Positions 1 through 64,000 of a stretch of DNA of 64,000 bases are shown here, one piece after another (the first letter of the stretch is position 1; the number at the start of each line of letters is the position of its first letter). Made by a program: the position numbers and the translations under genes. The notes below the pieces were generated by a model. That model made no database searches and was not told the DNA's origin. It saw only the letters and a list, made by a program, of their open reading frames with translations. The stretch covers positions 32,001 to 96,000 of the forward strand of contig CAYSCM010000001.1 of the NCBI GenBank assembly GCA_964429815.1, given 5' to 3'. The stretch is from an uncultured Candidatus Saccharibacteria bacterium. GTDB taxonomy: Bacteria; Patescibacteriota; Minisyncoccia; Phycocordibacterales; CAYSCM01.

Positions 1-269
1 TTCCCCGCGCGCGAGCGTACGTGAGTGGGACGTTGTTGGAGCCCGAACCGTTGCGGGCAATGGTTTTGAGGTTGACCATCCGTGCAAGCGCATCGACAGT
101 GAGAATCTCGTGCCCAAGAAGAAGGGCGACGACCCTCTCAGGCTCCGCAAGTGCGCCTGGATTTCTTTCGTGAAGAACTTCGAGACCCGCATCCTTGGCG
201 AGAGTCTGGAAATCCTTTTTGCCCGCATAGGTTCCGGGCGTTACGACAAGAACATTTTCTTTCTGCATG
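1..269 (-). CDS. D-isomer-specific 2-hydroxyacid dehydrogenase family protein, N-terminal part (partial; runs off window start)
   Basis: Reverse-strand translation from the ATG at 269 (cat at 267-269) reads MQKENVLVVTPGTYAGKKDF...LKTIARNGSGSNNVPL, the catalytic/NAD-domain junction pattern of D-2-hydroxyacid dehydrogenases. AAGGAG sits 8 nt upstream. There is no stop in the window, so it is absent from the ORF track. Confidence 0.5.
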
Positions 270-386
270 CCCTTCTCCTTCTTTCGTGGCCAACTCATGG
301 GGCCCCTCGCAGTTGTTCGGGTTTGAGACGTGCAAAATCCTGGGCCATACTACTTACCGCTTGTCAAATAGTCAACTCCCCGATCT

Positions 387-1160: not shown

Positions 1161-1697
1161 ATGGACCACCTTAGTCCAGAACTTAGGAAGAAATTCTCGC
1201 AGGTACAGTTTCTCGCGCTCGACTTCGACGGCATTTTCACCACGGGCCACGTGTACGTGCGCCAAGATGGAGAAGAAAGCGTTAAGTGCGACCGGCGCGA
1301 CGGCTTTGGGATTGAGCTTCTGCGCCGAGCCGGAGCCGTTAAAGCTTGCATCATCTCGCGAGAGCCAAACCCCGTCGTGACGGCGCGCGCAAAAAAGCTC
1401 CAACTCCCGGTGTGGCAAGGGATCGAGCGCGGAGGAGGAAAGCTCGAGGTACTCAAAGCTCACGTGGCCGAGCTCGGCATTGCGCTTGAGAACGTCGCAT
1501 ACATGGGGGATGACCTCATCGACATTGCGGTGCTACGAAGCGTCGGACTCCCTATCAGCGTCCCGAACGCCCATCCGAAAGCGCAGAGAGAGGCCCTCTA
1601 CGTCACCAGAGCAGGCGGCGGGGACGGAGCGATCCGTGAGGTCGCCGAGCTTCTCTTGCTAAGCAAAGGTTTCGACCTCGAGGAGCTCTCCCGTTAG
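1161..1697 (+). CDS. HAD-IIIA phosphatase, KdsC family (second, divergent paralog)
   Basis: LDFDGIFT is HAD motif I. ENVAYMGDDLIDIAVL...YVTRAGGGDGAIREVAELLLL closely follows E. coli KdsC (ENVAYVGDDLID...YVTRIAGGRGAVREVCDLLLL). An alternative GTG start lies at 1131. Confidence 0.75.
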   Translation: MDHLSPELRKKFSQVQFLALDFDGIFTTGHVYVRQDGEESVKCDRRDGFGIELLRRAGAVKACIISREPNPVVTARAKKLQLPVWQGIERGGGKLEVLKAHVAELGIALENVAYMGDDLIDIAVLRSVGLPISVPNAHPKAQREALYVTRAGGGDGAIREVAELLLLSKGFDLEELSR

Positions 1698-1737
1698 CCC
1701 AGTGACCCTTTATATGCGTGGTATGGTTATCTCACCT

Positions 1738-2454
1738 ATGAAAAACGATGTCGTGCTAGTGATCCCGGCTCGCGGTGGAAGCAAGGGAGTGCCGCGGAAA
1801 AATATCCGCCCGCTCTATGGAAAGCCCTTGGTTGCCTACACCATTGAAGCGGCGCTTTCCTCAGGAGCCATTAGCCGCGTTATTGTCTCGACCGATGATC
1901 AAGAGATTGGAGCAGTGGCAGAAAAATTTGGTGCGGAGTATCTTGACCGACCGAAAGAAATTTCCGGTGATAAGGTGACACTCGAGCCGGTGATTAAACA
2001 CGCTCTTGCGGCGCTAAAAGAAAAGGAAAACTACGTACCCACCTACATTGCCTGCATTCAGCCGACTTCCCCACTCCTTAGTGGAGATGTTATACGACGT
2101 TGTGTGGAAAAACTTACAAAAGAAAATTTTGATTCATGCATTACTGCGTTTTTGCCTGACACCTACGAATGGAAGTGGAGTCCAATCGTCAAAGACGGTA
2201 AAGAAGTCGGCTTCGAACCTGAACGACCTGTTATGAAGCGCGTGGTGCGGCAAGATTTGCCCAAGGTTTACCACGAGAACGGCGCCTTTTACGTCACCAA
2301 GACCTCACTTTTTAACGAAATCGGCCATCGCTGGGGAGGCAAGATGGCGATCGTTGAGATGACGCAGTTGAATTCTATACAAGTCGATAGCGAAGACCAA
2401 TTCTGGTTTATTGAACAGATCCTCCGCAAGCGCGAAAAAGACAACAAATCGTAG
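1738..2454 (+). CDS. CMP-sugar cytidylyltransferase (acylneuraminate cytidylyltransferase NeuA / CMP-Kdo synthetase family)
   Basis: VLVIPARGGSKGVPRKN is the signature N-terminal motif of NeuA/PseF/LegF-type cytidylyltransferases. The ORF track starts at a GTG at 1702; the ATG at 1738 (MKNDVVLVIPARGG) gives the canonical N-terminus. Confidence 0.8.
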   Translation: MKNDVVLVIPARGGSKGVPRKNIRPLYGKPLVAYTIEAALSSGAISRVIVSTDDQEIGAVAEKFGAEYLDRPKEISGDKVTLEPVIKHALAALKEKENYVPTYIACIQPTSPLLSGDVIRRCVEKLTKENFDSCITAFLPDTYEWKWSPIVKDGKEVGFEPERPVMKRVVRQDLPKVYHENGAFYVTKTSLFNEIGHRWGGKMAIVEMTQLNSIQVDSEDQFWFIEQILRKREKDNKS

Positions 2455-2492
2455 CCGCAGTCACTAGACAAATCATCGATTTTCTGGTCTAT

Positions 2493-2534
2493 TGACACCA
2501 GTAACAGATCGCCCTCTAAAAATGTTTAGAGGGT
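2493..2534 (+). promoter_or_regulatory. Candidate promoter (-35 TTGACA at 2493-2498) overlapping a 9-bp-stem hairpin (ccctctaaa-aatg-tttagaggg) upstream of the radical SAM gene
   Basis: TTGACA is followed after 17 nt by a weak -10 (TCTAAA). The perfect inverted repeat at 2513-2534 is followed by tcttttac. This could be a terminator or attenuator for the upstream cytidylyltransferase gene or a regulatory hairpin. AGGAGGA precedes the ATG at 2565. Confidence 0.3.
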
Positions 2535-2564
2535 AGGCTCTTTTACAGTTTACAGGAGGAACCA

Positions 2565-4307
2565 ATGACTCTCGAGCTCAGGGACTTTGTCCCGAAGAAG
2601 GCCCTCGGGCTCCATCCCGCCGACGTTGTCGCTGGGATTCCCTGGGGAGGACTCTCCGGTATGCGGGTGTGTTTCATCAACATGCCACTGCGGGAGTCCG
2701 CGAAGCCAAATACCCCGCCGCAAGGTCCCGGCCTTATGGCGGCCCGTCTTATGCAGTATGGCGCTGACGTCTCGATTATCGACCTCAACGGCTACCGTAT
2801 CGATGACGAAGAAGCGCACAAGCGCGGACTCGTCAATGGCCGACACGTCTCCCACAATGAGGCGCGTCAGCTCATCGAGGCGACTTTCCACAAGTTCGGC
2901 GAACCGCACGTGATTGGCCTTTCGGGGAAAATCACGACGTTGCGCTGGCAGGAGTGGACCGCCAAGACGTGTCGTTCGCTCGCTCCAGAGGCGTTTCTCA
3001 TCTCCGGCGGTGGGCTCGCGACCGAGTTCAAAGAAGGACTCTTCAGCTGGGTGCCGCAGCTCGACGCGGTCGGCCACTCGGAAGGCGACGACATCATGGT
3101 CGCCTGCGTGAATGACGTTCGCAAGAGCGGAGGCAAGCGCGAGCGCATGACCGACTCGCCCTACTACGTGGGCGAAATCGGCGGACGCCACCGCTTCCTC
3201 TATGCGGGCGATCGACCAAGGGACCTCGATGCGCTACCGTTTGCTGCGCTCGAACTTCTCGAAGAAGACGTCTTTGGCAATCGCATACTCGACGAGTACA
3301 TCGCGACCCCCGTATGGGGACTCGCGGCGAACAACTCGTCGGCGGCACCTTTCGAGATGAGGAAGTCTCTCACGACCGTCTCCTCTCGCGGCTGTCCGTA
3401 TGCCTGCGCGTTCTGCTTCCGTGGAGCGCAAGGCGAGCAAAAGTGGGGGATCCGCTCCCCCGAGAACCTGCGAGCCGAAGCCGAGTGGATGATTCGGAAG
3501 TATGGCGTGGATTTCATCGGGTTTCCCGATGACAACTTTGCCGTAAGCGTCAAGCGCTGCCAATCGCTTCCGGAGGCCTTTGACGGGCTCTCGTTTCGTT
3601 GGGGCACGCATACGCGCCTTGACGAATGCACGCTCGATCGGATCGTGCCCATGGCGAAAGCTGGGTGCATCTATATCGGCGTCGGTGCCGAATCGGCCTC
3701 GAAACACACCCTCTACCGCATGAAAAAGGGCGGACACATCGTCCGCAAGGACGGCGTGGAGCGTCTCACGAAATGGAACGGGTTCGAATTTCCGACAACG
3801 ATGATCGAGGGGATTCGAAATTGCCGAGACGTGGGTATCCACGTGAACGCGACCTGGATCATGGGATACCCAGGGGAAACCTTGGAGGACCTCAAGACCT
3901 CGGTTGCTTTCATTTCCTGGCAACAGGAGCACTACACCAAGGGATTGGTGCCCGGCACGCCGGAGTATCAAAATGCCTCGGCGTCGGTGAATCGACGCAT
4001 GTTCACGGCGACGTGGTATCCGGGGACCACCATGGTGGAAGCCCCCGAAGCCACGAAACCGCGGGAGCTCCTCGGCGAGCACTTCGGGATTCGTTTCGTC
4101 GAGAAAGGAAGCGGGCATGCACACAAGTTCGTCCCCGTTCCCGACGACGCAATGAAAGCCTATGTGCTGGAACTCGATGACGCGACTAAGATCCTCCACG
4201 GATCCGACGGAGCGCCCATCAACTACTCGGACATGCCGGAGGAGGTCTTCCTCGAGGCCCGTAGTCACATCGATTCGGGTCAAACGGAAAAGATCCTGTC
4301 GATGTAA
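2565..4307 (+). CDS. Cobalamin (B12)-binding domain / radical SAM protein (class B radical SAM, probable methyltransferase or related)
   Basis: CPYACAFC is a CxxxCxxC radical SAM cluster motif at about residue 280. The N-terminal approximately 250 aa resemble a B12-binding Rossmann-like region. A strong SD (AGGAGGA) sits at 2554-2560. The protein is 580 aa. Confidence 0.8.
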   Translation: MTLELRDFVPKKALGLHPADVVAGIPWGGLSGMRVCFINMPLRESAKPNTPPQGPGLMAARLMQYGADVSIIDLNGYRIDDEEAHKRGLVNGRHVSHNEARQLIEATFHKFGEPHVIGLSGKITTLRWQEWTAKTCRSLAPEAFLISGGGLATEFKEGLFSWVPQLDAVGHSEGDDIMVACVNDVRKSGGKRERMTDSPYYVGEIGGRHRFLYAGDRPRDLDALPFAALELLEEDVFGNRILDEYIATPVWGLAANNSSAAPFEMRKSLTTVSSRGCPYACAFCFRGAQGEQKWGIRSPENLRAEAEWMIRKYGVDFIGFPDDNFAVSVKRCQSLPEAFDGLSFRWGTHTRLDECTLDRIVPMAKAGCIYIGVGAESASKHTLYRMKKGGHIVRKDGVERLTKWNGFEFPTTMIEGIRNCRDVGIHVNATWIMGYPGETLEDLKTSVAFISWQQEHYTKGLVPGTPEYQNASASVNRRMFTATWYPGTTMVEAPEATKPRELLGEHFGIRFVEKGSGHAHKFVPVPDDAMKAYVLELDDATKILHGSDGAPINYSDMPEEVFLEARSHIDSGQTEKILSM

Positions 4308-4324
4308 TCCAGTTCTCTCACTCA

Positions 4325-4358
4325 GGGACCGCAGCAATGCGGTCCTTTTTTATTTTTA
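4325..4358 (+). terminator. Rho-independent terminator after the radical SAM gene
   Basis: The stem gggaccgcagc/gcggtcc is followed by ttttttattttta. Confidence 0.7.
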
Positions 4359-4397
4359 TGGTCGTTCGCATCCTCATCCTGACCAATCATCGTGCTT

Positions 4398-4426
4398 TTT
4401 GATGTGAGCGTGCTTTAGGTATAGTG
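4398..4426 (+). promoter_or_regulatory. Candidate sigma70-like promoter for the methyltransferase gene
   Basis: TTGATG, then 15 nt, then TATAGT lies just upstream of GGAG and the ATG at 4432. The spacing is short. Confidence 0.3.
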
Positions 4427-4431
4427 GAGCG

Positions 4432-5394
4432 ATGAAGATAGTACGGTGGTCCATACCCAAGCACCTCGATCTGTCGATTGAGATTTCCGGTAGAGAACAT
4501 ATGGCACAGGGAGAAAAGATGGGGTCTACGAAAGCCTTGGATGTCCTGCGCGGAATAACCTTCAGCGGCTCAGCGCCGGCGATACAGTTTGCCGATGTCG
4601 AGTCTTTATTTTCCTTTGTAGAAAAAAAATTTTTACATAAGACATTTGCGGGAGTCGGCATCGAAGTCGGCGCGGGGCCGATGATATTTAGCTCGCTCCT
4701 TACGCGCTCACGACCAAACATTCAACAGATGTATGGAATCGAACTAAGTGGCGGTATCGTAGAATTCATTGCCCCGGGAGTGGTTGATGAATTGCTGGGA
4801 CCCAAGAGTGAAAAGGTAGTCGGGGTCATCGGCAGTTTCGACGCGATGGAGCTTACAAGCGAGAGTGTCGATTTTGTTCTTGATTTTATGTCGCTTCACC
4901 ATGCGACCGACCTCGGAGAGGCGTTCGCCGAATGCTACCGGGTGCTAAAACCAGGCGGCTTCGTTGTTCTTTTTGACAAGGCTCGCCCCGATTCCTTCAC
5001 CTCTCAAGACCTGGAGGGATTGCTCAATACCGAGTACAGCGATGAAGAGAAAAAACGCTTTGGGGTGCCTTCCGGCGAACACTTTACACGCCGGATGAAC
5101 GGGGAAAAAGAATACCGGCTTAAAGATTGGTCGGCGGGGGCCTTAGAGGCCGGTTTCCCGACCCTTATGCATTGGCGACTCGCGCGCACCAACGTGCCGG
5201 GTATCTCAGGATTGTACCGACGTTTGCTTTCTCATGTGCCGCTACGCACCCAGATGGCTACTACCGCTATTGCACAAAGCGTACTGGGCAGCGGCTCAAG
5301 AGTGAAGTTTTCACAAAAAAATTTGGTGTACTCGCGGTACGTGAACCCCTTCCCCCGCGAGATCTCGCTCATGATCGCGCACAAGGCTTACTAA
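4432..5394 (+). CDS. Class I SAM-dependent methyltransferase (type 11-like)
   Basis: GVGIEVGAGPM is a glycine-rich motif I. VLKPGGFVVLFD is the post-II/III region typical of small-molecule methyltransferases. Confidence 0.7.
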   Translation: MKIVRWSIPKHLDLSIEISGREHMAQGEKMGSTKALDVLRGITFSGSAPAIQFADVESLFSFVEKKFLHKTFAGVGIEVGAGPMIFSSLLTRSRPNIQQMYGIELSGGIVEFIAPGVVDELLGPKSEKVVGVIGSFDAMELTSESVDFVLDFMSLHHATDLGEAFAECYRVLKPGGFVVLFDKARPDSFTSQDLEGLLNTEYSDEEKKRFGVPSGEHFTRRMNGEKEYRLKDWSAGALEAGFPTLMHWRLARTNVPGISGLYRRLLSHVPLRTQMATTAIAQSVLGSGSRVKFSQKNLVYSRYVNPFPREISLMIAHKAY

Positions 5395-6299
5395 CTTCTC
5401 CACGCGCTCAGGTCGCGCCCGGTAAATGCCTCGAGTTTTTGCAGTTCGGGTTCATAGCGAGCGCGGAGGGCTTCTTTGAGCTTCGGGTCGAGCGTCCCGT
5501 AGCTAGCTTCCCCGGTCCCCGCCCTCGTGTCGATGGAGCGCACTACTTTTTGGTGGAGCGGCGTTTTGCGGAAGAGGGAGAGGAGGGGCTCTCCGAATGG
5601 CAGGGCTTTGAGTAGCTTCCGCGCCCTGAGCGCGTGTCTGCGCAAGAGTGTCGCTCCGGCGGAATTTATGGTCGTGGCGAGCGAGGGCGGCACGAACGAG
5701 GCATCGACGCCGATGAAAGAAAAGATATCTCTCATATATTTTTTTGGGTCGGCACGCATATCGTCATAGAACGTAATGAGTATCTGGTCGCGGGAAAATA
5801 CCTTGAGATAATTTTCGAGGTGCTTCATATAGAAGCTCTCCTCGATAAACGACGGTTTAGTTTTAATAATTTCCTCAAGGGTTGGGAGCTCATGTGCGCC
5901 CTTTAGCTTCGTGTACATGTAGTGGGAAAAAAAGCGCTCCGTAGGGTTTCGCAATACCGCAATGATCTTCGCTTTAGGAAAATGTGTACGGAGGCGCTCC
6001 GGCACCTCGGGTGCGTGAATATAGATAGGAGTGACTTCTCCGTATACCCTCTTCCCTACACAGTGACCAAAATGTTCAAAATACCCTTCGAGAGCGCCGT
6101 TGTATTTTGTTTTCCCCACCAAATCAGTGCGCCAGAAACTTTGCGTCGTGTTAAAAAAGTTGAGCTCTTTGGGTTCGGAAACACAGACCTCGGGGTGCTC
6201 TTTGAGACATTGGTGGAGCCAGGTGGTGCCCGTCCGCTCCGGACCAATCACGAAGAAATCAATGGAAAAAGGCTTTGCTGTAGATGAAATGGTACTCAT
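5391..6299 (-). CDS. Sulfotransferase family protein (PAPS-dependent, carbohydrate sulfotransferase-like)
   Basis: FFVIGPERTGTTWL matches the 5'-PSB motif (PKSGTTW). IAVLRNPTERFFSHY matches the 3'-PB motif (RNPxD...S.Y). The start overlaps the upstream gene stop in an ATGA arrangement. Confidence 0.75.
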   Translation of the reverse strand: MSTISSTAKPFSIDFFVIGPERTGTTWLHQCLKEHPEVCVSEPKELNFFNTTQSFWRTDLVGKTKYNGALEGYFEHFGHCVGKRVYGEVTPIYIHAPEVPERLRTHFPKAKIIAVLRNPTERFFSHYMYTKLKGAHELPTLEEIIKTKPSFIEESFYMKHLENYLKVFSRDQILITFYDDMRADPKKYMRDIFSFIGVDASFVPPSLATTINSAGATLLRRHALRARKLLKALPFGEPLLSLFRKTPLHQKVVRSIDTRAGTGEASYGTLDPKLKEALRARYEPELQKLEAFTGRDLSAWRS

Positions 6300-6931
6300 G
6301 AGGCCGTCGGGATGGATTCCTTGTCGCGGTTTGAGAAAAACAGGTAGTCGACGATGGCGTGGAAGAAAACCGCGTGAAGCGCCTCAACGGGACCGTAGGC
6401 ACCTTTTCCTGTCTCAATGATTATCTTGTGGTGACAGAGGCTCTTCGCTTTGCCTCCGTCAAAACCAAGAACGCCTATCGCCGTGCCGCCCTTAGCGCAT
6501 ATGTACTCGATCGCGCGAAGCACATTGGGGGAATTGCCACTTGCGGAAATGACGATGAGCACATCGTCGGGACGAAAAATGTGCTTAAGCTGGTCCGCAA
6601 AAACGTTCTCGTAGCCGACATCGTTCCCGAGCGCCGTCACGGCGGCGATATTGTTGAGCGCGTGAATACGAAACGGCTTTTCTTCCGTACCACCCCCGTT
6701 CGTGGTGAGATCGGCCGCAAAGTGAGCCGCCATGGCAGCGCTCCCCCCGTTGCCGGCGATGTAGATCGTAGAGCCCCTCTCCCGGGCCTTTTGAAGCACG
6801 TCGATAATCTCCTCGACCGCTTTGGAATCTACGGCGGAAGCAAGCTCGAAGGCATGCGCAAGATACCCTTCCATAAATTCGGGTACCGATCCTTTTGTCT
6901 TTTGATAGATGGTATCGACGTGTCCTCTCAT
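6296..6931 (-). CDS. gmhA: Phosphoheptose isomerase (sedoheptulose-7-phosphate isomerase, SIS domain)
   Basis: It is a single SIS-domain protein of about 211 aa. STIYIAGNGGSAAMAAHFAADL is the GmhA signature. It is translationally coupled on both sides. Confidence 0.8.
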   Translation of the reverse strand: MRGHVDTIYQKTKGSVPEFMEGYLAHAFELASAVDSKAVEEIIDVLQKARERGSTIYIAGNGGSAAMAAHFAADLTTNGGGTEEKPFRIHALNNIAAVTALGNDVGYENVFADQLKHIFRPDDVLIVISASGNSPNVLRAIEYICAKGGTAIGVLGFDGGKAKSLCHHKIIIETGKGAYGPVEALHAVFFHAIVDYLFFSNRDKESIPTAS

Positions 6932-7932
6932 AGCGTTGTGAGCACCCCGCGGATGAGCTTCCCTTCCTCGAGGTCTTTGAGGGCGGCTCCTATCTCGTCG
7001 AAGGAATACTCTTTCGTAAGTAACTTATCCAAGCACATGACCTTCGGGTTTTCAACGTATTCACGCGCGTAGCGAGGAATGTCGCGGTCGAGCTCGCTCT
7101 CTCCGCCCCAGGTGCCGTAAAGCTTTTTGCCCTTGATGAGCCCGAAAGGGTTGATCGATATGGTTTCCCCGGGCGCAAGGTTTCCTGCAATAACGACGGT
7201 CCCGGCGTCCTTGACCGCGCGGTAGGCGCTCTCCATGGCGCCCTTGTTTCCCGAACACTCGACGGCCACATCGAAATCCTTTCCCTGAAACTCTTCGGCA
7301 GAGATCGCTTCATCGACGCCGAGCTCCTTTTTCGCATGCGCGAGCTTCCACGGAACGACGTCGATCGCGGTAACGTGAGCACCCTTCATGACGGCTCGAA
7401 TGAGTGCACTCGCTCCGATCCCCCCGATGCCGAATATAACCACTCGTTTGCCGTTGAGGTCTCCTAGGCGGTCGATGATACCCATGCCGGTCGGCACCGC
7501 GCACCCAAGAAGTGCCGCAATCGCGGGCTCCACCCCTTTTGACACCTTGGTGACACGATTCTCTGAGACGACCGCAAGCTCGGTAAACGTCGCCACGGAG
7601 CCACCGTTTACCTTCCCTTCTTTGCTTTGATACGTCGGCACCGGAGCGGATATACCCTCTCCAAGGATCCAACTTGCAACCACATAATCTCCGCTCCTTA
7701 CTTTCTGCACGCCTTCTCCGGCCGCGACCACCTCCGCTGCGGCTTCATGTCCCAATAAGTGGGGAATATATTCCGCTCCTTTCCTGCCGCGGATTTCATT
7801 GAGTTGGCTGTGGCAAAGTCCTGTCGCTAGCACTTTAATAAGTACCTGCCCCTTTTGAAGGGAGGGAACCTCAAGCTCCTCGATGGAGAGCGGTCCACCG
7901 ACGACGCGGAGTACTGCAGCGCGCGTTTTCAT
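6928..7932 (-). CDS. Zinc-type alcohol/sugar dehydrogenase (MDR superfamily)
   Basis: GHEAAAEVVAAGEGV is the zinc-ADH GHE motif. GIGGIGASAL is a NAD-binding GxGxxG. The likely start is MKTRAAVL at 7932; the ORF track extends to 7998. Confidence 0.75.
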   Translation of the reverse strand: MKTRAAVLRVVGGPLSIEELEVPSLQKGQVLIKVLATGLCHSQLNEIRGRKGAEYIPHLLGHEAAAEVVAAGEGVQKVRSGDYVVASWILGEGISAPVPTYQSKEGKVNGGSVATFTELAVVSENRVTKVSKGVEPAIAALLGCAVPTGMGIIDRLGDLNGKRVVIFGIGGIGASALIRAVMKGAHVTAIDVVPWKLAHAKKELGVDEAISAEEFQGKDFDVAVECSGNKGAMESAYRAVKDAGTVVIAGNLAPGETISINPFGLIKGKKLYGTWGGESELDRDIPRYAREYVENPKVMCLDKLLTKEYSFDEIGAALKDLEEGKLIRGVLTTL

Positions 7933-7933
7933 G

Positions 7934-8587
7934 CTAGGGGATAAACCAGTAGTAGTCACCCGTGTAGCCGACCTCGGCGAAGAGTTTTTTCCAATCATCG
8001 ACAGATAGGATGGTCTTTGCAGTAAGATTCCACTTCATCATGCGATCCTTCTCTTCTTCATGGTGGTAGGCGTCGACGGTAATGAACGAGTGTTTTCCTT
8101 TCACACGCTCAATCTCTCGAAGAGCCTCTTTACACTCAGGCAGTGGTAGGTTGTGAATGGTGTTAATCGAAATCACGAGATCGTAGGATTTATCCGCAAA
8201 TTGACTAAGATTTCTTGCATCTCCAACCGATACTGCGCCCGCAATTGAGGGCATGGCATTTTCGATAGCGTAGGAGGAAACATCAATACCGCGAACCACC
8301 ATGTGGGGAAGCCAATAGAGAAAATCATTAAGCATAAATCCCTTAGCACACCCGACATCAAGTACCGAAGAGTTGTTGTTGAGTCCGTAGTAATTTATGA
8401 AATCCCGAACCACCGGTACCCACCTCCCATCATAGCGGAAGCCGCCGTAGCCCTGATCCCTGGTGCCATCAAAAAACTCCCTGCCAAACTTTCGGGCAGT
8501 AGCAACATCCTCAGGAGACTTTTGTCCTCGAGCTTCAATGTTGCGTTTGGCTTTTGGATATTTCGAAAGAAGATCGATTTCTGCCAT
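7934..8587 (-). CDS. SAM-dependent methyltransferase
   Basis: VLDVGCAKG is motif I. It is 217 aa, a size typical of O-antigen/NDP-sugar modifying methyltransferases. Confidence 0.65.
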   Translation of the reverse strand: MAEIDLLSKYPKAKRNIEARGQKSPEDVATARKFGREFFDGTRDQGYGGFRYDGRWVPVVRDFINYYGLNNNSSVLDVGCAKGFMLNDFLYWLPHMVVRGIDVSSYAIENAMPSIAGAVSVGDARNLSQFADKSYDLVISINTIHNLPLPECKEALREIERVKGKHSFITVDAYHHEEEKDRMMKWNLTAKTILSVDDWKKLFAEVGYTGDYYWFIP

Positions 8588-8596
8588 AGTGGTTGG

Positions 8597-10366
8597 TTAT
8601 TTTTTTTCGGGAAGAAGCTTAACCATCATGTTGTCATTGAACTCTTTTCTTGCAAGTAGCGGCTCGGGATCCTCGAGCGGCCGACCGAACTTTACCTGCG
8701 GGATTACGCGGTGCTTCGGGTTAATCTCGATGTTACAAAACACAGGCCCCCTCATCGCGAGCACCTTCTTAACTCCCCCGCTCAACTCGCGGTTCTTCTT
8801 GATCGTAATGGTTTTGAAGCCAAAGGAGGAAGCAATTTTGGCAAAGTCTGGGAACGCAAGTCCTCCCCCTTCCGAAGACGCAAGATACGCCGAATTAAAC
8901 CACTGATCTTGAGTCTGCTGTATCATACTGTAGCCGTGGTTATTCAATACAAAAATCTTGATCGGAAGTTTGTGCTTGAGAAGGGTACTTAACTCTTGCA
9001 AATTCATTTGGAGTGAACCATCTCCGGTTACACAAATAATTGATTTCTTGTTAAGCGCCAGGCTTACCCCAATGCTCGCCGGCAAAGCCCACCCCATCGC
9101 GGTGTTGTTCCAATCGTGGTAAAGACGCTGACCTTTCTTGAAGGAAAATCCCTGCATCATCCATGCGACCGTGCAGCCGGTATCAATGACCATTACTTCG
9201 TTCTGACGCGTGTAGCGAGAGAGCTCCTCAACAAATACATACGGATTGACCCCTTTCTCTTTGTAGTACGCGGGTGGGCACATGGGATATTTTTTCTTCC
9301 ATGCGGCAATACGTCTAAGCCAGGGTGAGATGTCGTTTTTTGGCAAACGTGCGGCGTGCTTTTGAAATGCCTTCAGCAGCTCTTTTGCGTCACCGGAGAT
9401 ACGCACATCGACTTTCAGGCCAAATTTTTTAAACTTCTTAAGTTCGTAGGGGTCAATATCGATGACTATCTTTTTTGCCTCTCGCGCAAACGTGTTGGGA
9501 GGACTACCCGTCGATTTGGTATCAAGACGGCTTCCGATTGAGAGGATCATGTCAGCGTTCTGGACGGCAAAATTGGCAAACCGCGTGCCGTGAGTGCCAA
9601 AGGTGCCGATGCGAAGTGGATGACTCTCTGGCAGGAGATCCCCTGCCCCCCATGTGAGTGCCGCAGGAAAGCCGAGTGTTTCCAAAAGTGAGATGGCCTC
9701 TTTTTCGGCCCCCGCGAGGTGGATTCCCCACCCAAACACAACGACGGGGCGCTTCGCCTGCCGTAGATAGTTTATGCTTCGAGCTACATCAACCGGCGCT
9801 TTCTTCTTCTCGACGGAGGGTGTAAACGAGGGAAGCTCTCCTGGATTAATTTCTCTGCGCTGAATGTCGTCGGGAATATCGAGCACTACGGGTCCTGGCC
9901 TACCACTTCGCGCCAGAAAGATCGCTTTCTCAAGCTCGTAGCGTATGCGCCTCTCATCGGTGATGAGTATCGCGTACTTAGTGATAGGACGATACATTTC
10001 GACCGTTGCCGTTTCTTGAAAACCCACTTGCCGCACGTTGGTATGACCTTTCATCCTAAAGGTGGCTACTTGGCCGGTAATAAATATGACGGGTACCGAA
10101 TCGTAGTAGGCGGAGCACACTCCCGTGATCATGTTCGTAGCACCTGGCCCTGAGGTGGACATCGCTACACCGAGGCCACCCGTGGCCCTCGCGTACCCGT
10201 CGGCAGCCATTGCCCCCGCTTGCTCGTGTCCTGGACAGATGACCTCCATTCCCCCCGTGCGCGCCACCGAATGAATAAGGTGAAGGGATGCTCCGCCGGA
10301 GATGGCAAAGACATGCTTCACCCCTTCTTTGCGGAGAACCTGTGCTACGTAGTCGGTGAGCTTCAT
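8597..10366 (-). CDS. Thiamine-pyrophosphate-dependent enzyme, acetolactate synthase large-subunit-like (YerE-like candidate for sugar C2-branch attachment)
   Basis: The N-terminal MKLTDYVAQVLRKEGVKHVFAISGGASL...GPGATNMITG has the TPP PYR domain. The central domain and C-terminal VTGDGSLQMNLQEL...N TPP-binding GDG motif are also present. It is 589 aa. Confidence 0.85.
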   Translation of the reverse strand: MKLTDYVAQVLRKEGVKHVFAISGGASLHLIHSVARTGGMEVICPGHEQAGAMAADGYARATGGLGVAMSTSGPGATNMITGVCSAYYDSVPVIFITGQVATFRMKGHTNVRQVGFQETATVEMYRPITKYAILITDERRIRYELEKAIFLARSGRPGPVVLDIPDDIQRREINPGELPSFTPSVEKKKAPVDVARSINYLRQAKRPVVVFGWGIHLAGAEKEAISLLETLGFPAALTWGAGDLLPESHPLRIGTFGTHGTRFANFAVQNADMILSIGSRLDTKSTGSPPNTFAREAKKIVIDIDPYELKKFKKFGLKVDVRISGDAKELLKAFQKHAARLPKNDISPWLRRIAAWKKKYPMCPPAYYKEKGVNPYVFVEELSRYTRQNEVMVIDTGCTVAWMMQGFSFKKGQRLYHDWNNTAMGWALPASIGVSLALNKKSIICVTGDGSLQMNLQELSTLLKHKLPIKIFVLNNHGYSMIQQTQDQWFNSAYLASSEGGGLAFPDFAKIASSFGFKTITIKKNRELSGGVKKVLAMRGPVFCNIEINPKHRVIPQVKFGRPLEDPEPLLARKEFNDNMMVKLLPEKK

Positions 10367-10370
10367 GGCG

Positions 10371-11228
10371 CTACCAGGGCATCTGCTCCTTAACGCTTAT
10401 AAAGAGTGTCCCGTCACGGTAGCTCTCGGGCATATCGCCGGCTTTTGTGACAAGTCCCCACCCTATCTTCTGCGAGAACAAATTGACGCCGGAGCCTGTA
10501 AAGTGCTTGAAAATGTGCTTGGCATTCTCCGCGGTCCCAACCTCGACCAGGCCGTCACAGCTCTCCCAATCGGAAGCTTCGGTCGAGAGGAGTACTTCCT
10601 TCTCGTGCCCTTCGACGTCCATTTTGATGAGATCAGCGCCGGCGAGAATCGGCCCGAACGCTTCGAGCTCCACGGAGAACATTTCCCGATCCCCGTAGAC
10701 GTCGTGCTTTGCTCCCGAGAGGTGACTCCCCGTAGTGTTGCCGAGCACTCGGGTAAAATCTGCTGAACCCGAGCGACTTGAGACGGCGCTGTTGTGAAGG
10801 CTGGCAGAATTACATCCGTTACGCGCAAGATTTTTTTTGAGGATATCGAAATGAACCGGATCGGGCTCGTAGGAGGAAACCTTAAAACCACAACGACAAA
10901 GGATAATCGAGTGAAGTCCAATATTTGCTCCGAGGTCTACAACGCTCGTATAGCGATTGCGATTGCGCCAGTAAAAACTGAAAATAACGAGTTCATTGAG
11001 GTCAAAGAGATTCCGCGAATCGACATTACCCATGTTGTGGTATGGAAACGAGATATCTCCAAATGGCGGAAAGTGGACCGACTCTTTTGAATCAACGGGA
11101 AAGAGCCTCTCCACTTCCTTCCGAGCTTTGGCGGCACGTTCTTTGAATGGCGCGCTTGTCGGAGTATGAGAGGGTAATTCCTGCGGGAGCGTGGCAAAGA
11201 TATTCTCCAAAAAAGCCGAGGATTCCAT
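10371..11228 (-). CDS. FkbM-family SAM-dependent methyltransferase
   Basis: VVDLGANIG and KMDVEGHE are FkbM-domain hallmarks. Confidence 0.7.
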   Translation of the reverse strand: MESSAFLENIFATLPQELPSHTPTSAPFKERAAKARKEVERLFPVDSKESVHFPPFGDISFPYHNMGNVDSRNLFDLNELVIFSFYWRNRNRYTSVVDLGANIGLHSIILCRCGFKVSSYEPDPVHFDILKKNLARNGCNSASLHNSAVSSRSGSADFTRVLGNTTGSHLSGAKHDVYGDREMFSVELEAFGPILAGADLIKMDVEGHEKEVLLSTEASDWESCDGLVEVGTAENAKHIFKHFTGSGVNLFSQKIGWGLVTKAGDMPESYRDGTLFISVKEQMPW

Positions 11229-12215: not shown

Positions 12216-13496
12216 ATGCGCCAAAAATTGAGCACCCTTGTCGAAAAACTGACGGTCGCGACCGGCATAAACTTTTCCTACCTCCTGCGCGGAGGGTCCT
12301 GGGCGTTTTCCGAGCAGGTGGTTACCAACGCCATCTCCCTCCTCCAGGCCATCGCGTTTGCCAACCTTATCTCTCCGCAGACGTATGGAGTGTTTAGTGT
12401 CGTGCAATCGTGGATAGGCATTCTCGTTACGTTCGCGCTCGGGAGCCTTCCAAACGCGCTTATAAAAAGCGTTGCGGAAGGCAACGACGGGGAGCTCAAA
12501 CGCGGATTTCTCCTCAAGCTTAAGTATGCTCCCCTTGCCTCTCTGCTCGGGCTCGGATTCTCCTTCTACTATCTATTTATAGGGAACAATACGACCCTCG
12601 CTTACTCGTTTCTCATTGCTTCGTTTTGCATGCCGCTTTACGTAGCGCTTCCGCAGGTCACGTTCTTCCTGTTCGCCAAGGGAGCATTTCTCGATAAGTT
12701 CATCGTGCAAGTGAGCGTTAGTCTTGCTTCGCTGGCAGGAATGACTATTTCAATGCTCTATTTCGGTTCTGTTCCATACCTGATGCTCGCCTACTTCATT
12801 CCACCGATCATCGTGAACGGCATCTTTTTTTGGCGCACGCTGCGCACCAAGGTTCATAATGCCAAGACCGGCGCGAACACGGAGCGGTTTGCGCTCCACC
12901 TTACGGGCATGAGTCTTCTTGGTTCGATAACCAAAAACATCGACCAACTCCTCATGTTCCACTTCAGCGGCGCAGTTCAGCTCGCGGTATATAAATTTGC
13001 CTTGATTCCCATACGAAAGCTGGAGACCTTTTTCCAGATCATCCTCGATCTGCTCCTCCCGCGATTTGCCAAGAGAGAGTACCGCGAGATTTACCAGGGG
13101 TTCGACAGAAAGCTCCTCCTTTCAGGCGCTTTTTCGTTGACGGTCGTGGCTGTTTATTTTTTCAGCATCCCCTACCTCTACAAGCTCTTTTTCCCGAAAT
13201 ACACCGACGCGGTGATATACTCGCGACTCCTTTCCCTGCTGTTTTTGTTTGGCCCTCTCTCATACGTTCAGCAGCTTTGGCTTGCGAAGGCGGAAACTAA
13301 ACGTCTCTATTTTTTAAAAATTCTCGGTGATTCCACCCGGATCTCACTTCATGTCGCGCTTATTCCCGTATTTGGGATCGCCGGTGCAGTGGGAAGCCGG
13401 ATGGTCGCATCCTCCTTTGTCAGCACCGCGGCATTCATTTTATTTTTGAAGGATAGGAGACGGTACGGTAAAGGCTCGAAGCGCCAATCGCAGTAA
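12216..13496 (+). CDS. Polysaccharide/O-antigen flippase, Wzx-like (MOP/PST family), polytopic membrane protein
   Basis: It is 426 aa with about 12 hydrophobic segments. The N-terminal region NAISLLQAIAFANLISPQTYG is typical of PST-family flippases. Confidence 0.65.
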   Translation: MRQKLSTLVEKLTVATGINFSYLLRGGSWAFSEQVVTNAISLLQAIAFANLISPQTYGVFSVVQSWIGILVTFALGSLPNALIKSVAEGNDGELKRGFLLKLKYAPLASLLGLGFSFYYLFIGNNTTLAYSFLIASFCMPLYVALPQVTFFLFAKGAFLDKFIVQVSVSLASLAGMTISMLYFGSVPYLMLAYFIPPIIVNGIFFWRTLRTKVHNAKTGANTERFALHLTGMSLLGSITKNIDQLLMFHFSGAVQLAVYKFALIPIRKLETFFQIILDLLLPRFAKREYREIYQGFDRKLLLSGAFSLTVVAVYFFSIPYLYKLFFPKYTDAVIYSRLLSLLFLFGPLSYVQQLWLAKAETKRLYFLKILGDSTRISLHVALIPVFGIAGAVGSRMVASSFVSTAAFILFLKDRRRYGKGSKRQSQ

Positions 13497-13508: not shown

Positions 13509-14732
13509 TCACGCGCTCCCGCGGGGAGCGAGGGTGTGCGGCCAGGTAAGTACGCCAAGATCTGCCTCCTCGATGTTCTCTTTCCATTTTCGCATATCCG
13601 AAACCGAGATAAGATGTGCAAATTCCTTTTTCAGGGTTTCGAGTGTTTCCTGTTCCCAGGAAACTTTCTGAAATGCTTGTCGTTGCCACGGAAACGAGTC
13701 ACCTTCCTTGAGCCAGCTGTAGTTGTTGGCGACGTCGGGCATCACGAAACTGGACGCAAAGTACGCTATATCATCCCGCAAAAAGGCCCACGAGAGAGGG
13801 CCACTCGAGACGCACAGGTAAAAGAGCGCGCGCTGTACTAGGGCTAGATCCTGCTCGCTGTTCGTCCCATAGTCTTTGGTAAAGATAACGTTTGGCCCGC
13901 GCAGCGCTTCATTGATCTCGGCTCCCCTGCCTAAAATAATGAAGGTGCACTCGGGATACTGCTTCGAACAGTACCTAAAAAATTCTCGCCAGACTTTCGG
14001 TTTAGCGTTTCGGTGCGAGGCAAAAAAGGGATTGCTGCGCAGGCTGACCGCTACGGCGTATCCAGGCGCATGTTTTTTGATAAATGCTCGTGCCCACGCA
14101 TCAGTGAGGGCGGGTATCTTCAGCTTCGGTAGAGATCCGTACCGCTCGTAGAATTCCTTGAAAAACAAGTAGCCACGACGGTAGGGAGAATTGCTATTTA
14201 CGTAGTCAAAAAGAGATGGGGTGAGGATATACTTTCCCCGGCGCTCAGCGAGAAAAGACTCGAATTCATCCCTGGAATCGAAAATGTGGACCGACCCCAA
14301 CTTTGGATTGGTACGCAAAACAGGAAAAATCTCAATGAAGTGGAGCGGGACATTTTCTTTGGTGATCCAACCCGCATATTTAGAATGTCGACTAGGTCTT
14401 TCTCTGTCGTATACAAAAGCGTAGTCGATCTTTTCAACTTCATGGATGTGGGCCTCGCATAGCGTCCTGATCTGGTGCTCGATCAGTATCCCAAATGAGA
14501 CATCGGTGGTGAGAAAATCATTAATGCCCAGAATCCTTCGATCATTTCGCTCGTGGCGACGCAGAACGTAGCGGGCATAGCGCATCGAACCAACAATGCC
14601 TCGACGATACCAACGTTCATACACGCGATACGTCAAAAAATTGACTGCGACATCAAAGGCGGGTACCAAAAAGGGGGGCAGCATTTTTCGAAAATGCACA
14701 ACCGCAGGTTTCTTGTTGAGTGCGCGCAACAT
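13509..14732 (-). CDS. Hypothetical protein with divergent GT9 (heptosyltransferase-like) C-terminal signature
   Basis: The C-terminal DLALVQRALFYLCVSSGPLSWAFL resembles the GT9 motif (L..LAALI..A.L.VGNDSGP.HLAAA). The N-terminal 150 aa are unrecognised. It is translationally adjacent to the HldC-like gene. Confidence 0.4.
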   Translation of the reverse strand: MLRALNKKPAVVHFRKMLPPFLVPAFDVAVNFLTYRVYERWYRRGIVGSMRYARYVLRRHERNDRRILGINDFLTTDVSFGILIEHQIRTLCEAHIHEVEKIDYAFVYDRERPSRHSKYAGWITKENVPLHFIEIFPVLRTNPKLGSVHIFDSRDEFESFLAERRGKYILTPSLFDYVNSNSPYRRGYLFFKEFYERYGSLPKLKIPALTDAWARAFIKKHAPGYAVAVSLRSNPFFASHRNAKPKVWREFFRYCSKQYPECTFIILGRGAEINEALRGPNVIFTKDYGTNSEQDLALVQRALFYLCVSSGPLSWAFLRDDIAYFASSFVMPDVANNYSWLKEGDSFPWQRQAFQKVSWEQETLETLKKEFAHLISVSDMRKWKENIEEADLGVLTWPHTLAPRGSA

Positions 14733-14733
14733 G

Positions 14734-15231
14734 TTAGCGTCGGTAGGTTGAATTTTTTTTGATTGCCGTAATGATATCGCGTGTGCTTAATTTTTTGTCT
14801 TTCGTAAAGGTAATCCTGCAACCCACCTTCTGAGCGCTTTGTATTTCCTCTGCGAAATCTTTATTCGGCGGGATACCGCGGTAATCGGGACCGCGCACAT
14901 ACAGGTCCGGCTTGAGAGCACGTATGAATCTTGATCCATTGTTAGCATCATTAATGAACACGAAATCAACCGGGCGAAGCTGCGAGAGCATGTAGGCCCG
15001 CATATGCTCGGTGAACACCGGGCGGCCGATACCTTTTTGTCTTCGTACCTGTTTATCACTTGCGATCGCAACCACGAGCACATCACAGAGGCGCTTTGCG
15101 GATTCAAAATGCATCGCATGCCCGGGGTGGAGCAGATCATAGTTGCCGTTACAAAAACCGATGATCTTCCCCTCCTTTTTACGTCGAGCAAGTATGGGAC
15201 GAAGCTGCTGAAAGGAGATGATGCGTGCCAT
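14734..15231 (-). CDS. Cytidylyltransferase-like nucleotidyltransferase; best match to the heptose 1-phosphate adenylyltransferase domain (HldC / RfaE domain II). TagD-like glycerol-3-P cytidylyltransferase is not excluded.
   Basis: GFCNGNYDLLHPGH is the HxGH motif. VVAIASDKQVRRQKGIGRPVF...LKPDLYVRGPDY parallels E. coli HldE domain II (VNSDAS..LKG..RPV...PDLLVKGGDY). Confidence 0.65.
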   Translation of the reverse strand: MARIISFQQLRPILARRKKEGKIIGFCNGNYDLLHPGHAMHFESAKRLCDVLVVAIASDKQVRRQKGIGRPVFTEHMRAYMLSQLRPVDFVFINDANNGSRFIRALKPDLYVRGPDYRGIPPNKDFAEEIQSAQKVGCRITFTKDKKLSTRDIITAIKKNSTYRR

Positions 15232-16249: not shown

Positions 16250-17317
16250 TTAAAACGGACCGGTAAAACGCTTATCGGGCACATCGAGCGGCGTCGTGCG
16301 TTTCTTCTCTTCCGCTGCGACGAGCGACTCTAATTTTTTTGTATCCCCCTCAACCATAGAGACCACCATTCTGGCCATATCGATATAGCGCGGGTAGTAC
16401 TCATTGGCAAGCGCAGGCGTTGATGGGCTTGGCAGATCCGGCGCGGTAAGCCGGCGAGGGTTGGTCCGTAGACTGATTGTCGAATCCTCCGCGACTTGTG
16501 TGATTATCTCTCCCGCGACCCCGAAGCTGCGATGCCCGAGATCGGCCACAAGCAGCCGTCCTGTTTTTTTGACTGAGCGTGCTATTGTCTCGGTATCAAG
16601 AGGTTTAAGACTTCGCACATCGACGACCTCGGCGCTCACGCCAACCTTTTGGAGTAACTCCTGCGCACGCAGAGCCTCGTAGGTGAAGTAGGACGTTGTT
16701 ACAAGGGAAACATCGCTTCCCCGGCGCATTATACGAGCCTTGCCGATGGGCACCCTATAGTGACCCTCGGGAACATCTTCAGCAAGATCATGGAGCCATC
16801 GATGATCGATATATATGACCGGATTATCGTCCTCAATCGCGGCGAGCATCAGTCCCTTGGCATCGGAGGGGGTCGCGGGCATCACTACCTTGAGCCCGGG
16901 GATGTGCGCATAGAGGGCTTGGAGATTTTGTGAATGCTGCGGGCCCTGCCCCCATCCCATGCCGATGGTCATTTTCACCGTAAGGGGTACCGATTGCGCT
17001 CCGTTGTACATGTACGACCATTTCGCCGCATTGTTGATCACCTGCTCGATCGCAAGAAGGCTGAAGTCAACTCTCTGGTGCGTTAGGACTGGGCGCATCC
17101 CATTTACCGCCGCACCGATGCAGATCCCGGTTACCGCGAGCTCAGAAGTTGGCATATCAAGTACTCGTTTTGCGCCATGTTTTTTCTGAAGTCCCGTCGT
17201 CGTGCCAAAAATTCCCTTTGGATCAGGGACACCCAATCCTATAAGGAACACCGACTTGTCTTTAGCCAGAGCAAGATCAAATGCTTCTCGTATTGCTTGC
17301 GAATATGTTTTACGCAT
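16250..17317 (-). CDS. TPP-dependent 2-oxoacid dehydrogenase E1 component, beta subunit-like (transketolase-like pyrimidine-binding and C-terminal domains)
   Basis: MRKTYSQAIREAF...SVFLIGLGV...MPTSELAVTGICIGAAVNGMRPV is a canonical E1-beta N-terminus. The start is probably the ATG at 17317; the ORF track extends to 17401. It is coupled to the E1-alpha gene. Confidence 0.8.
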   Translation of the reverse strand: MRKTYSQAIREAFDLALAKDKSVFLIGLGVPDPKGIFGTTTGLQKKHGAKRVLDMPTSELAVTGICIGAAVNGMRPVLTHQRVDFSLLAIEQVINNAAKWSYMYNGAQSVPLTVKMTIGMGWGQGPQHSQNLQALYAHIPGLKVVMPATPSDAKGLMLAAIEDDNPVIYIDHRWLHDLAEDVPEGHYRVPIGKARIMRRGSDVSLVTTSYFTYEALRAQELLQKVGVSAEVVDVRSLKPLDTETIARSVKKTGRLLVADLGHRSFGVAGEIITQVAEDSTISLRTNPRRLTAPDLPSPSTPALANEYYPRYIDMARMVVSMVEGDTKKLESLVAAEEKKRTTPLDVPDKRFTGPF

Positions 17318-20309: not shown

Positions 20310-20353
20310 GGTACCTGATGGGTGGGAAAAGAAAAGCCGCGAAAAGCTTCCTC

Positions 20354-25987: not shown

Positions 25988-26022
25988 GGCCGCACCCATA
26001 GGGTGCGGCCGATTTTTACTTT
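25988..26022 (+). terminator. Rho-independent terminator (copy 2, near-identical to 25386-25420)
   Basis: The stem cggccgcaccc-atag-gggtgcggcc is followed by gatttttac. It is the same 36-nt unit as copy 1, with 2 mismatches. Confidence 0.6.
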
Positions 26023-29876: not shown

Positions 29877-29938
29877 GAGAGTGAGTGTTACACGTAAACT
29901 AAATCGACATCGGGAAAGTTGCAATGAGGAGCCTGCGT

Positions 29939-31243: not shown

Positions 31244-31246
31244 TCG

Positions 31247-44260: not shown

Positions 44261-44261
44261 G

Positions 44262-44267
44262 AGTATA
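44262..44267 (-). promoter_or_regulatory. Candidate -10 box (TATACT) abutting the ATG of the VirD4-like gene (possible leaderless mRNA)
   Basis: The minus-strand sequence reads TTGCAT-20nt-TATACT-C-ATG. The spacer is long for a sigma70 promoter, so only the -10 element is called. Confidence 0.25.
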
Positions 44268-44288
44268 GCAATTTTGCCGCCATCGCGA

Positions 44289-44318
44289 TGCAAAAAGCCC
44301 CGCACTCTTTTGCGGGGC
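44289..44318 (-). terminator. Rho-independent terminator after the small gene at 44339-44554
   Basis: The minus-strand hairpin gccccgcaaaagagtgcggggc is followed by tttttg. Confidence 0.5.
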
Positions 44319-44338
44319 TTCCAGGTGTACGGCTTCGA

Positions 44339-44554: not shown

Positions 44555-44619
44555 GGCACACCTCGTCGTCGCTACCTTCAGTAGACCAGATATCCGATTT
44601 CACGCAATTGCGTTACGCA

Positions 44620-50504: not shown

Positions 50505-51980
<1,476 letters not shown>

Positions 51981-61020: not shown

Positions 61021-61075
61021 ATTATAAATTCCAACTATTTTCGATCTCTAAGTGTGACATTTTGGACGGATTCTC

Positions 61076-61464: not shown

Positions 61465-64000
<2,536 letters not shown>

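Follow-up and report, generated by a model that had tools for sequence, protein, structure and literature searches.

A probable PAPS-dependent glycan-sulfation system in a surface-glycan gene cluster of a presumed candidate phyla radiation bacterium

We describe two sulfotransferase genes, ST1 and ST2, that lie in a surface-glycan gene cluster on a 64,000-nt stretch of contig CAYSCM010000001.1 (hereafter the window), together with a gene for a predicted synthase of 3′-phosphoadenosine-5′-phosphosulfate (PAPS) on the same contig, about 9.2 kb outside the window. In our estimate there is roughly a three-in-four chance that these genes constitute a complete PAPS-dependent system for glycan sulfation within the surface-glycan cluster. 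Given that two intact sulfotransferase genes and a PAPS synthase occur in one cluster, a sulfated surface glycan is very probably made. Both sulfotransferase open reading frames (ORFs) had been picked out in a first-pass annotation of the window, and both are borne out, with ATG starts on the minus strand:

5391–6299, minus strand: ST1, sulfotransferase of 302 aa, ATG start, heparan-sulfate-sulfotransferase-like branch
29070–29876, minus strand: ST2, sulfotransferase of 268 aa, TPST/CurM-like branch, with His in the 5′-phosphosulfate loop

A key question for any such system is where the sulfate donor comes from. The first-pass annotation had seen no PAPS-synthesis genes in the window, and this holds: no ORF of at least 180 aa matches the Pfam families for ATP sulfurylase or adenosine-5′-phosphosulfate (APS) kinase, and tblastn searches of the window with E. 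coli CysD, CysN and CysC, and with the PAPS synthase and CysQ-like protein of a Kaiserbacteria genome, gave no match. The route to PAPS, on which that annotation had made its prediction depend, was found on the same contig. Logan assembly contig SRR12313482_12957 (L020), which was reached via the left-most complete protein of the window, is identical to the window across all 11,028 overlapping nt and extends beyond its left edge. It carries a 608-aa PAPS synthase gene that starts at L020 position 20272, a start about 14.6 kb from ST1 and some 9.24 kb to the left of window position 1. The Pfam content of this gene in precomputed annotation is PUA_2, ATP-sulfurylase and APS_kinase, and we take it for a bifunctional ATP-sulfurylase/APS-kinase on this predicted domain make-up. 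Its first 105 aa (L020 20272–20588) match PUA_2 at 6e-12, and its N-terminus is 54% identical over 35 aa to the N-terminus of the Kaiserbacteria PAPS synthase. Between it and the window are genes for HAD phosphatases, two 2-hydroxyacid dehydrogenases, two AAA_33 kinases, NeuB, a cupin and a second cytidylyltransferase; because these are sugar-pathway genes, the PAPS synthase is placed inside the same cluster. A query of a 5.8-billion-protein database with the Kaiserbacteria PAPS synthase returned no protein of the 501,704-bp window contig among the 120 matches listed, all of which are at least 53% identical to the query, and this result has no bearing on absence.

The two AAA_33 P-loop kinases (L001 18097–18729 and 18891–19604) are divergently oriented and lie 2–3 kb before the window start; a 244-aa gene in a related contig from Hainich groundwater (L015), sited within the module described below, is related to them at 32–36% identity. 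They were considered as candidates for a divergent APS kinase and rejected, having weak AAA_33 matches, no APS_kinase match and no meaningful match in the PDB, where one has no match and the other only chance-level ones (E 0.6 and 1.4). The idea is also superfluous because an actual PAPS synthase was found.

ST1 matches the Pfam family Sulfotransfer_1 (2.1e-22; 80.2 bits against a cut-off of 22) and also Sulfotransfer_3 (1.5e-18; 68.3 bits against a cut-off of 27). Its closest solved sequence by HMMER is 3RNL, an uncharacterised Alicyclobacillus sulfotransferase (3e-30), followed by the human NDST1 sulfotransferase domain and heparan-sulfate 3-O-sulfotransferases (3-OSTs) at 1e-12 to 1e-9. An AlphaFold (AF2) model built from 34 homologues has a mean confidence (pLDDT) of 87.9, and its top 50 Foldseek matches are all sulfotransferases or the sulfotransferase-fold retinol dehydratase, with 3RNL, NDST1 and 3-OST the best. 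The motif GPERTGTTW quoted in the first-pass annotation is present exactly, at residues 19–27, and forms the 5′-phosphosulfate loop with R22 as its basic residue; residues 117–125, RNPTERFFS, hold the 3′-phosphate motif (R117-N-P-T-E-R122-F-F-S125). The HMMER alignment pairs R22 with the loop Lys of NDST1 (1NST chain residue 57) and S125 with the NDST1 3′-phosphate Ser (1NST chain residue 155), which we take to be Lys614 and Ser712 of NDST1. Invariant across the 34 homologues are G19, K44, E45, P108, R117, P119 and S125, with R122 conserved in at least 90%, and the loop position is Arg in 21 of 41 family members and Lys in 16. E45 follows helix 1, where by motif position the catalytic Glu is expected, and is presumably the counterpart of that residue in 3-OST and NDST1. 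The predicted active site is of the heparan-sulfate-sulfotransferase type, with an Arg22 loop, a putative Glu45 base and an Arg117/Arg122/Ser125 site for the 3′-phosphate.

The heparan-sulfate sulfotransferases (NDST1, 3-OST-1, 3-OST-3 and 3-OST-5), together with 3RNL, are thus the best matches of ST1 in both sequence and fold, and the 5′-phosphosulfate loop and the 3′-phosphate Arg and Ser are colinear between them. The invariant KE..FF motif of ST1 (K44-E45) presumably sits at the site of their catalytic Glu. In contrast, identity is only 19–25%, Arg22 replaces the loop Lys, and ST1, a cytoplasmic protein of bacterial origin, lacks a Golgi anchor; its acceptor is certainly not heparan sulfate.

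ST2 lies in an ORF that spans 29070–29924. The ATG at 29876, used by public gene calls, gives the 268-aa protein, and the TTG at 29924 would add 16 residues. ST2 matches Sulfotransfer_3 (7.9e-22; 79.0 bits against a cut-off of 27) and has a weak C-terminal match to Sulfotransfer_1. Its nearest solved relatives by sequence are the CurM sulfotransferase domain and TPST2, and a Foldseek search with its very confident AF2 model (pLDDT 94.8) gave CurM ST, TPST1/2 and the OLS sulfotransferase as the best matches, the top 33 all being sulfotransferases or sulfotransferase-fold retinol dehydratase. The motif quoted for this protein, GSGHSGST, is likewise exact (residues 11–18), and residues 136–144, RDGRGVFSS, supply the 3′-phosphate motif (R136-D-G-R139-G-V-F-S-S144) and pair with RDGRASVHS of TPST2. 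H14 pairs with the Arg of the RSG(T/S)T loop of TPST2 and CurM, so that a basic 5′-phosphosulfate loop is present in ST2 only as a His variant. Of 246 family members, 213 have His here, 20 have Arg, 4 Lys, 3 Tyr and 2 Phe, and the predominance of His makes ST2 a member of a large His-loop subfamily. His is not known to us from the loop of any characterised sulfotransferase, though no exhaustive search was made. In 45 homologues H14, G34-E35, D111-S-S-K114, R136-D-G-R139 and S144 are at least 90% conserved, R136 being invariant. E35 stands after helix 1 at the place expected of a catalytic Glu by motif position and would, we assume, be the counterpart of the TPST2 catalytic Glu. The active site appears to be TPST/CurM-like, comprising a His14 loop, a putative Glu35 base, Lys114 and Arg136/Ser144.

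The TPST1/2, CurM and OLS domains, all of Sulfotransfer_3, share with ST2 the RDGR....S motif for the 3′-phosphate, a Ser-Lys motif and, presumably, the Gly-Glu base position. They differ from it in overall sequence (14–21% identity), in having Arg where ST2 has His14, and in context, which for ST2 is glycan synthesis rather than protein or polyketide modification. The ST2 family is large: counted as representatives of 50%-identity clusters, it has 4,957 members at E ≤ 1e-30 and 17,192 at E ≤ 1e-10. In most ST2 homologues the Gly-Glu motif is followed by a CxCG...C insertion, which may be a small metal-binding loop; the window ST2 and a few others are without it.

The first-pass annotation called the two proteins unrelated, and here it has to be corrected. 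Aligned with each other, ST1 and ST2 are 22% identical across a colinear stretch of 221 residues (E 0.02) in which the two nucleotide-binding motifs coincide, and both Pfam families are matched by each protein; they are distant homologues in two branches of one superfamily. The same annotation had raised the alternative that the proteins belong to P-loop families other than sulfotransferases; profile and fold searches place both only among sulfotransferases.

Both genes are embedded in glycan operons. The window comprises most of a surface-glycan biosynthesis cluster that is more than 50 kb long, and glycosyltransferases of family 4 (GT4), a flippase, an initiating transferase and sugar-modifying enzymes surround both ST1 and ST2. 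The features to which we refer are as follows:

1–298, minus strand: 2-hydroxyacid dehydrogenase, crossing the left edge of the window; the cluster carries on outward along the same contig
1161–1697, plus strand: KdsC-like phosphatase, part of a conserved module
1738–2454, plus strand: PseF/KdsB-like cytidylyltransferase, conserved module
2565–4307, plus strand: B12-type radical S-adenosylmethionine (SAM) enzyme, conserved module
6296–6931, minus strand: GmhA-like sugar-phosphate isomerase (SIS_2); matches the gmhA model at 5e-27, below the equivalog cut-off; its stop overlaps the ST1 start (ATGA)
6928–7932, minus strand: Zn-dependent alcohol dehydrogenase (Zn-ADH); its stop overlaps the SIS start (ATGA)
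7934–8587, minus strand: MetW-like SAM methyltransferase, in the ST1 operon
8597–10366, minus strand: acetolactate-synthase-like thiamine-pyrophosphate (TPP) enzyme, upstream in the ST1 operon; 449 bits against an equivalog cut-off of 538
10371–11228, minus strand: FkbM methyltransferase, upstream gene of the ST1 operon
12216–13496, plus strand: Wzx-type flippase (Polysacc_synt), 7 hydrophobic segments
26016–26996, minus strand: epimerase, in the ST2 operon
26978–27907, minus strand: truncated UDP-glucose dehydrogenase (UGDH)-like protein of 309 aa, with N-terminal and central domains and no match to the C-terminal UDP-binding domain
27937–29073, minus strand: GT4 glycosyltransferase, in the ST2 operon; its start overlaps the ST2 stop (ATGA)
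29975–31243, divergent from ST2 across a 98-bp gap: sugar C-methyltransferase (Methyltransf_14, 1e-45)
56237–57586, minus strand: initiating polyprenyl-phosphate sugar transferase (Bac_transf)

The operon structures proposed in the first-pass annotation agree with these coordinates. ST1 is the last gene of its operon and is joined by ATGA overlaps to the gmhA-like gene and, through it, to the zinc alcohol dehydrogenase. ST2 heads its own operon, as the first gene after the 98-bp gap, and is followed by the GT4 gene, to whose start its stop is joined, the short UGDH-like gene and the epimerase gene. The window locus hence holds, or adjoins, all the parts of a self-contained sulfated-polysaccharide cluster: sulfotransferases, PAPS synthesis, glycosyltransferases and export.

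In the mechanism that we propose, the Sat-CysC fusion encoded about 9 kb beyond the left edge would convert sulfate and ATP to PAPS in the cytoplasm. ST1 and ST2 are both predicted to be soluble and cytoplasmic, because neither has a hydrophobic segment, and they would use PAPS to sulfate hydroxyl (or amino) groups on sugar intermediates, the sugars accepted being nucleotide-activated or polyprenol-linked. Sulfation would occur while the initiating transferase (56237–57586) and the many GT4 enzymes build the unit, ahead of export of the sulfated unit by the Wzx-type flippase (12216–13496). That the two enzymes are catalytically active and act at this cytoplasmic stage is likewise presumed from their genes. 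The earlier prediction of a sulfated surface glycan therefore stands in its functional core, which is supported by folds, motifs, the PAPS synthase and the cluster, whereas the acceptors and the surface location of the product are parts that we infer. The same applies to the suggestion of two sulfation steps on different sugars, which the two operons may reflect.

ST1 belongs to a group of eight genes that co-occur in three CPR-type contigs (CPR, candidate phyla radiation): the window contig with L020, the Hainich groundwater contig L015, and L021. The module occupies 1161–8587 of the window plus L020 14479–15986, which is outside the window; 8897–20888 of L015; and 1770–8248 of L021. Its orthologues are 63–74% identical for the MetW-like methyltransferase, 58% for the Zn-ADH, 49% for the GmhA-like SIS_2 protein, 67–71% for the PseF/KdsB-like cytidylyltransferase, 32–42% for the KdsC/KDN-9-P-phosphatase-like HAD protein, 46–62% for the B12-type radical SAM enzyme, 62–67% for the NeuB/PseI-like synthase and 52% for ST1. 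By its gene content the module resembles a route to a CMP-activated ulosonic acid not yet described, and such an acid as the acceptor of ST1 is a hypothesis only. The position of ST1 varies: in the window it is joined to the SIS gene, and in L015 it stands beside NeuB, whereas in L019 and L023 it is flanked by an epimerase on one side and a GMC oxidoreductase on the other; its distance from the module in L019/L021 is about 20 kb.

The association of sulfotransferase genes with PAPS synthesis is not confined to the window contig, and it recurs in several independent contigs. In Candidatus Kaiserbacteria GCA_016217975.1 (L018 10001–13312), an ST2 homologue (41% identity) stands directly before the gene of a 547-aa PAPS synthase, whose translation has canonical sulfurylase and kinase motifs, and an Inositol_P (CysQ-like) gene comes next. 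The same triad, followed by a Wzy_C gene, occurs in a JGI metagenome contig (L022 3027–6325). Candidatus Magasanikbacteria GCA_014729395.1 (L017 1221–20831) has seven sulfotransferase genes in 20 kb of a glycan cluster, one of them close to ST2 and four others matching ST1 by tblastn, with Inositol_P and APS kinase genes at the edge of the stretch; its investment in sulfation is much heavier than that of the window. One 38.6-kb contig holds both an ST1 orthologue (52%) and a PAPS synthase, and in four loci of Rhizomicrobium (Alphaproteobacteria) cysD and a cysNC fusion are found 4–8 kb from ST1 homologues. The ST2 homologues in L017, L018 and L022 are surrounded by flippase, glycosyltransferase, Wzy, mannose-1-P guanylyltransferase and PMT_2 genes.

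Several points weigh against a complete glycan-sulfation system. The functions assigned to the two close families, those of ST1 and ST2, are predictions. The PAPS synthase was read directly over its first 105 residues, its three-domain architecture being taken from precomputed annotation, and neither a CysQ-like phosphatase nor a sulfate permease is found in the roughly 74 kb from about −9.5 kb to +64 kb. All NCBIfam matches in the eight-gene module score under their equivalog cut-offs, and because ST1 orthologues are not always beside this ulosonic-acid-like module, the acceptor is not readable from the neighbours. Finally, ST2 carries His where its characterised relatives have Arg or Lys, with Phe or Tyr in a few family members, and its nearest solved relatives act on protein tyrosine and acyl-ACP (acyl carrier protein) rather than on sugars.

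The last point leads to the alternative that survives best, although we regard it as improbable: that ST1 and ST2 are true PAPS-dependent sulfotransferases whose acceptor is not the cluster glycan, ST2 acting on protein tyrosine, or either one on a lipid or small metabolite. RaxST and TPST are known to sulfate protein tyrosine, and the best solved matches of ST2 are indeed CurM ST (acyl-ACP) and TPST1/2 (protein tyrosine). The match of ST2 to the Nod-factor fucose sulfotransferase NoeE (NCBIfam NF052394) is weak and local, 29.1 bits against a cut-off of 500 and restricted to residues 170–212, so that ST2 is not a member of the NoeE family; and acceptor-binding residues could be assigned in neither protein. 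Set against this, ST2 ends in an overlap with the start of a GT4 gene, the ST2 homologues in L017, L018 and L022 are all among glycan genes, the nearest characterised relatives of ST1 are carbohydrate sulfotransferases, and a Pfam survey of the window ORFs found no RiPP (ribosomally synthesised and modified peptide), peptide-export or polyketide genes nearby.

It could also be argued that the PAPS synthase serves ordinary sulfur assimilation, from PAPS to sulfite and sulfide, and that its nearness to the sulfotransferases is incidental. A survey of groundwater CPR genomes treats CPR sulfur genes in just this way, scoring them only as sulfate reduction (PMC11608272). We find this explanation harder still to sustain: the ST2 homologue, PAPS synthase and CysQ-like gene are adjacent in two independent contigs (L018 and L022), PAPS synthases lie within glycan clusters in the window contig and in L021, and neither a cysH-like PAPS_reduct gene nor a member of the sulfite-reductase family appears in any of the gene tables consulted for the window region and the related loci. 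Characterised sulfated-capsule clusters are, moreover, laid out alike (PMC11766843).

That one or both proteins are inactive or use another donor, the ST2 His loop marking a non-canonical activity, is very improbable: position 14 is His in 213 of 246 and Phe or Tyr in five, with no characterised precedent for His that we know of, but the family also has members with Arg (20) or Lys (4) there, the remaining PAPS-site residues are all conserved, family members sit directly beside a PAPS synthase and a PAP phosphatase, and the confident ST2 model has solely sulfotransferases as its top matches.

If the genes do form a glycan-sulfation system, it is of a type already known, since self-contained sulfated-capsule clusters are documented in marine bacteria and cyanobacteria. 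The rhizobial NodH/NoeE and NodPQ genes provide a case of carbohydrate sulfotransferases genetically linked to dedicated PAPS synthesis, acting on a secreted lipo-chitooligosaccharide and not on a cell-surface polymer; the Rhizomicrobium ST1 homologues near cysD-cysNC resemble this arrangement. A close parallel is the sulfated-capsule cluster of Cobetia marina KMM 1449, which contains cysD, cysNC, cysQ, a sulfate permease and a sulfotransferase, and whose product is chemically proven (PMC11766843). The Cobetia and window clusters share the logic of a polysaccharide cluster with its own PAPS synthesis and sulfotransferase, a logic that the triads of L018 and L022 also match. They differ in that Cobetia has cysD plus cysNC and exports through an ABC transporter (kps), whereas the window cluster has a single Sat-CysC fusion and a Wzx-type flippase; Cobetia also has the cysQ and sulfate permease genes that are not found within about 74 kb here, and sulfation in the window cluster is read from genes. 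The cyanobacterial synechan (xss) locus is similar to the window cluster in pairing Wzx/Wzy-type exopolysaccharide machinery with two sulfotransferases, XssA and XssE; it differs in its cyanobacteria-specific XssQRS regulation, and the part of the source used here describes no PAPS genes (PMC13125312). The window system is set apart from these by its single-polypeptide PAPS synthase, by sulfotransferases of two branches, by the His-loop variant and by its host lineage.

As to that lineage, the window probably derives from a CPR genome, judging from nearest homologues and synteny. The nearest ST1 relatives (52–53%) are in Nomurabacteria genomes and genomes labelled ‘Saccharibacteria’, and a more distant one (32%) is in a Patescibacteria-group genome; relatives of ST2 and of the PAPS synthase are named Kaiserbacteria, Magasanikbacteria and Paceibacterota, and several genes are syntenic with such contigs. 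The first-pass annotation thought sulfation novel for a CPR-like lineage. In the literature searched we found no relevant paper on sulfotransferases, PAPS use or sulfated glycans in CPR/Patescibacteria, so the claim keeps some force, but the genes themselves are already named as such in public CPR genomes: bifunctional PAPS synthases and sulfotransferases are so called in Kaiserbacteria, Paceibacterota, Pacebacteria, Levybacteria, Zambryskibacteria and Woesebacteria. Similar gene sets recur in other CPR-labelled public genomes, and the case is real without being unique.

CPR bacteria, whose genomes are tiny, are believed to live attached to other cells, and very little is known of their surface chemistry. 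Here well over 50 kb of a small genome is given to a single glycan cluster, and the PAPS synthase and pair of sulfotransferases in that cluster suggest a coat that is sulfated and strongly anionic. We suggest, tentatively, a wider picture in which sulfated surface glycans are a widespread and so far undescribed CPR trait, Sat-CysC fusions are dedicated PAPS suppliers for glycan sulfation in place of sulfur assimilation, sulfate is linked in this lineage to a ulosonic acid, and the His-type loop of the ST2 family is a variant form of the phosphosulfate-binding loop; taken together, these are rather doubtful. If true, one sulfate would in this lineage be placed on an unusual CMP-activated ulosonic acid, or next to it, the acid being the product of the NeuB/KdsC-like/cytidylyltransferase/GmhA-like/Zn-ADH/radical-SAM module, and the result would be an anionic coat, glycosaminoglycan-like or sialoglycan-like, that could mediate attachment to host cells. 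The Sat/CysC matches in CPR genomes that have been scored as sulfate reduction (PMC11608272) may need to be reread as capacity for sulfation. Sulfation would also offer a chemical handle for detecting or enriching the cells, by 35S-sulfate labelling, sulfate-specific stains or binders, and these loci may be a source of soluble bacterial carbohydrate sulfotransferases, including the large His-loop family, for engineering sulfated polysaccharides.

A number of other features of the cluster deserve mention. The 407-aa ORF at 13509–14732 was considered as a Wzy polymerase and ruled out for want of any hydrophobic segment. Two tandem GDP-mannose 4,6-dehydratase paralogues adjoin the sugar C-methyltransferase (region 29975–33283). 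Inside the cluster are an E1 alpha/beta TPP dehydrogenase pair (16250–18269) and the acetolactate-synthase-like TPP enzyme, and their presence hints at sugars that are branched-chain or acyl-modified. A cytidylyltransferase-like gene, a long PfkB-family kinase and a TagF-like glycerophosphotransferase (14734–15231 and 19251–21724) recur as a trio in L019/L021 and L023, and suggest that the cluster has a polyol-phosphate (teichoic-acid-like) component. At its right end (41719–45975) the cluster has genes for a lamin-tail-domain protein, a VirD4/TraG-like ATPase and a DUF4015 glycoside-hydrolase-like protein; the VirD4-like/DUF4015 pair is also found after a run of GT4 genes in GCA_030647535.1 (L023 18305–20897).

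Finally, we note that the rRNA genes of the window are split, the 16S gene (50519–51980) lying about 9 kb apart from the 5S (60916–61021) and 23S (61464–64000) pair, with secDF, an epimerase, the initiating sugar transferase, a GT4 and ftsW in the interval. The match to the 23S model covers 2,537 nt for 2,374 model positions, and the gene may contain a small insertion.

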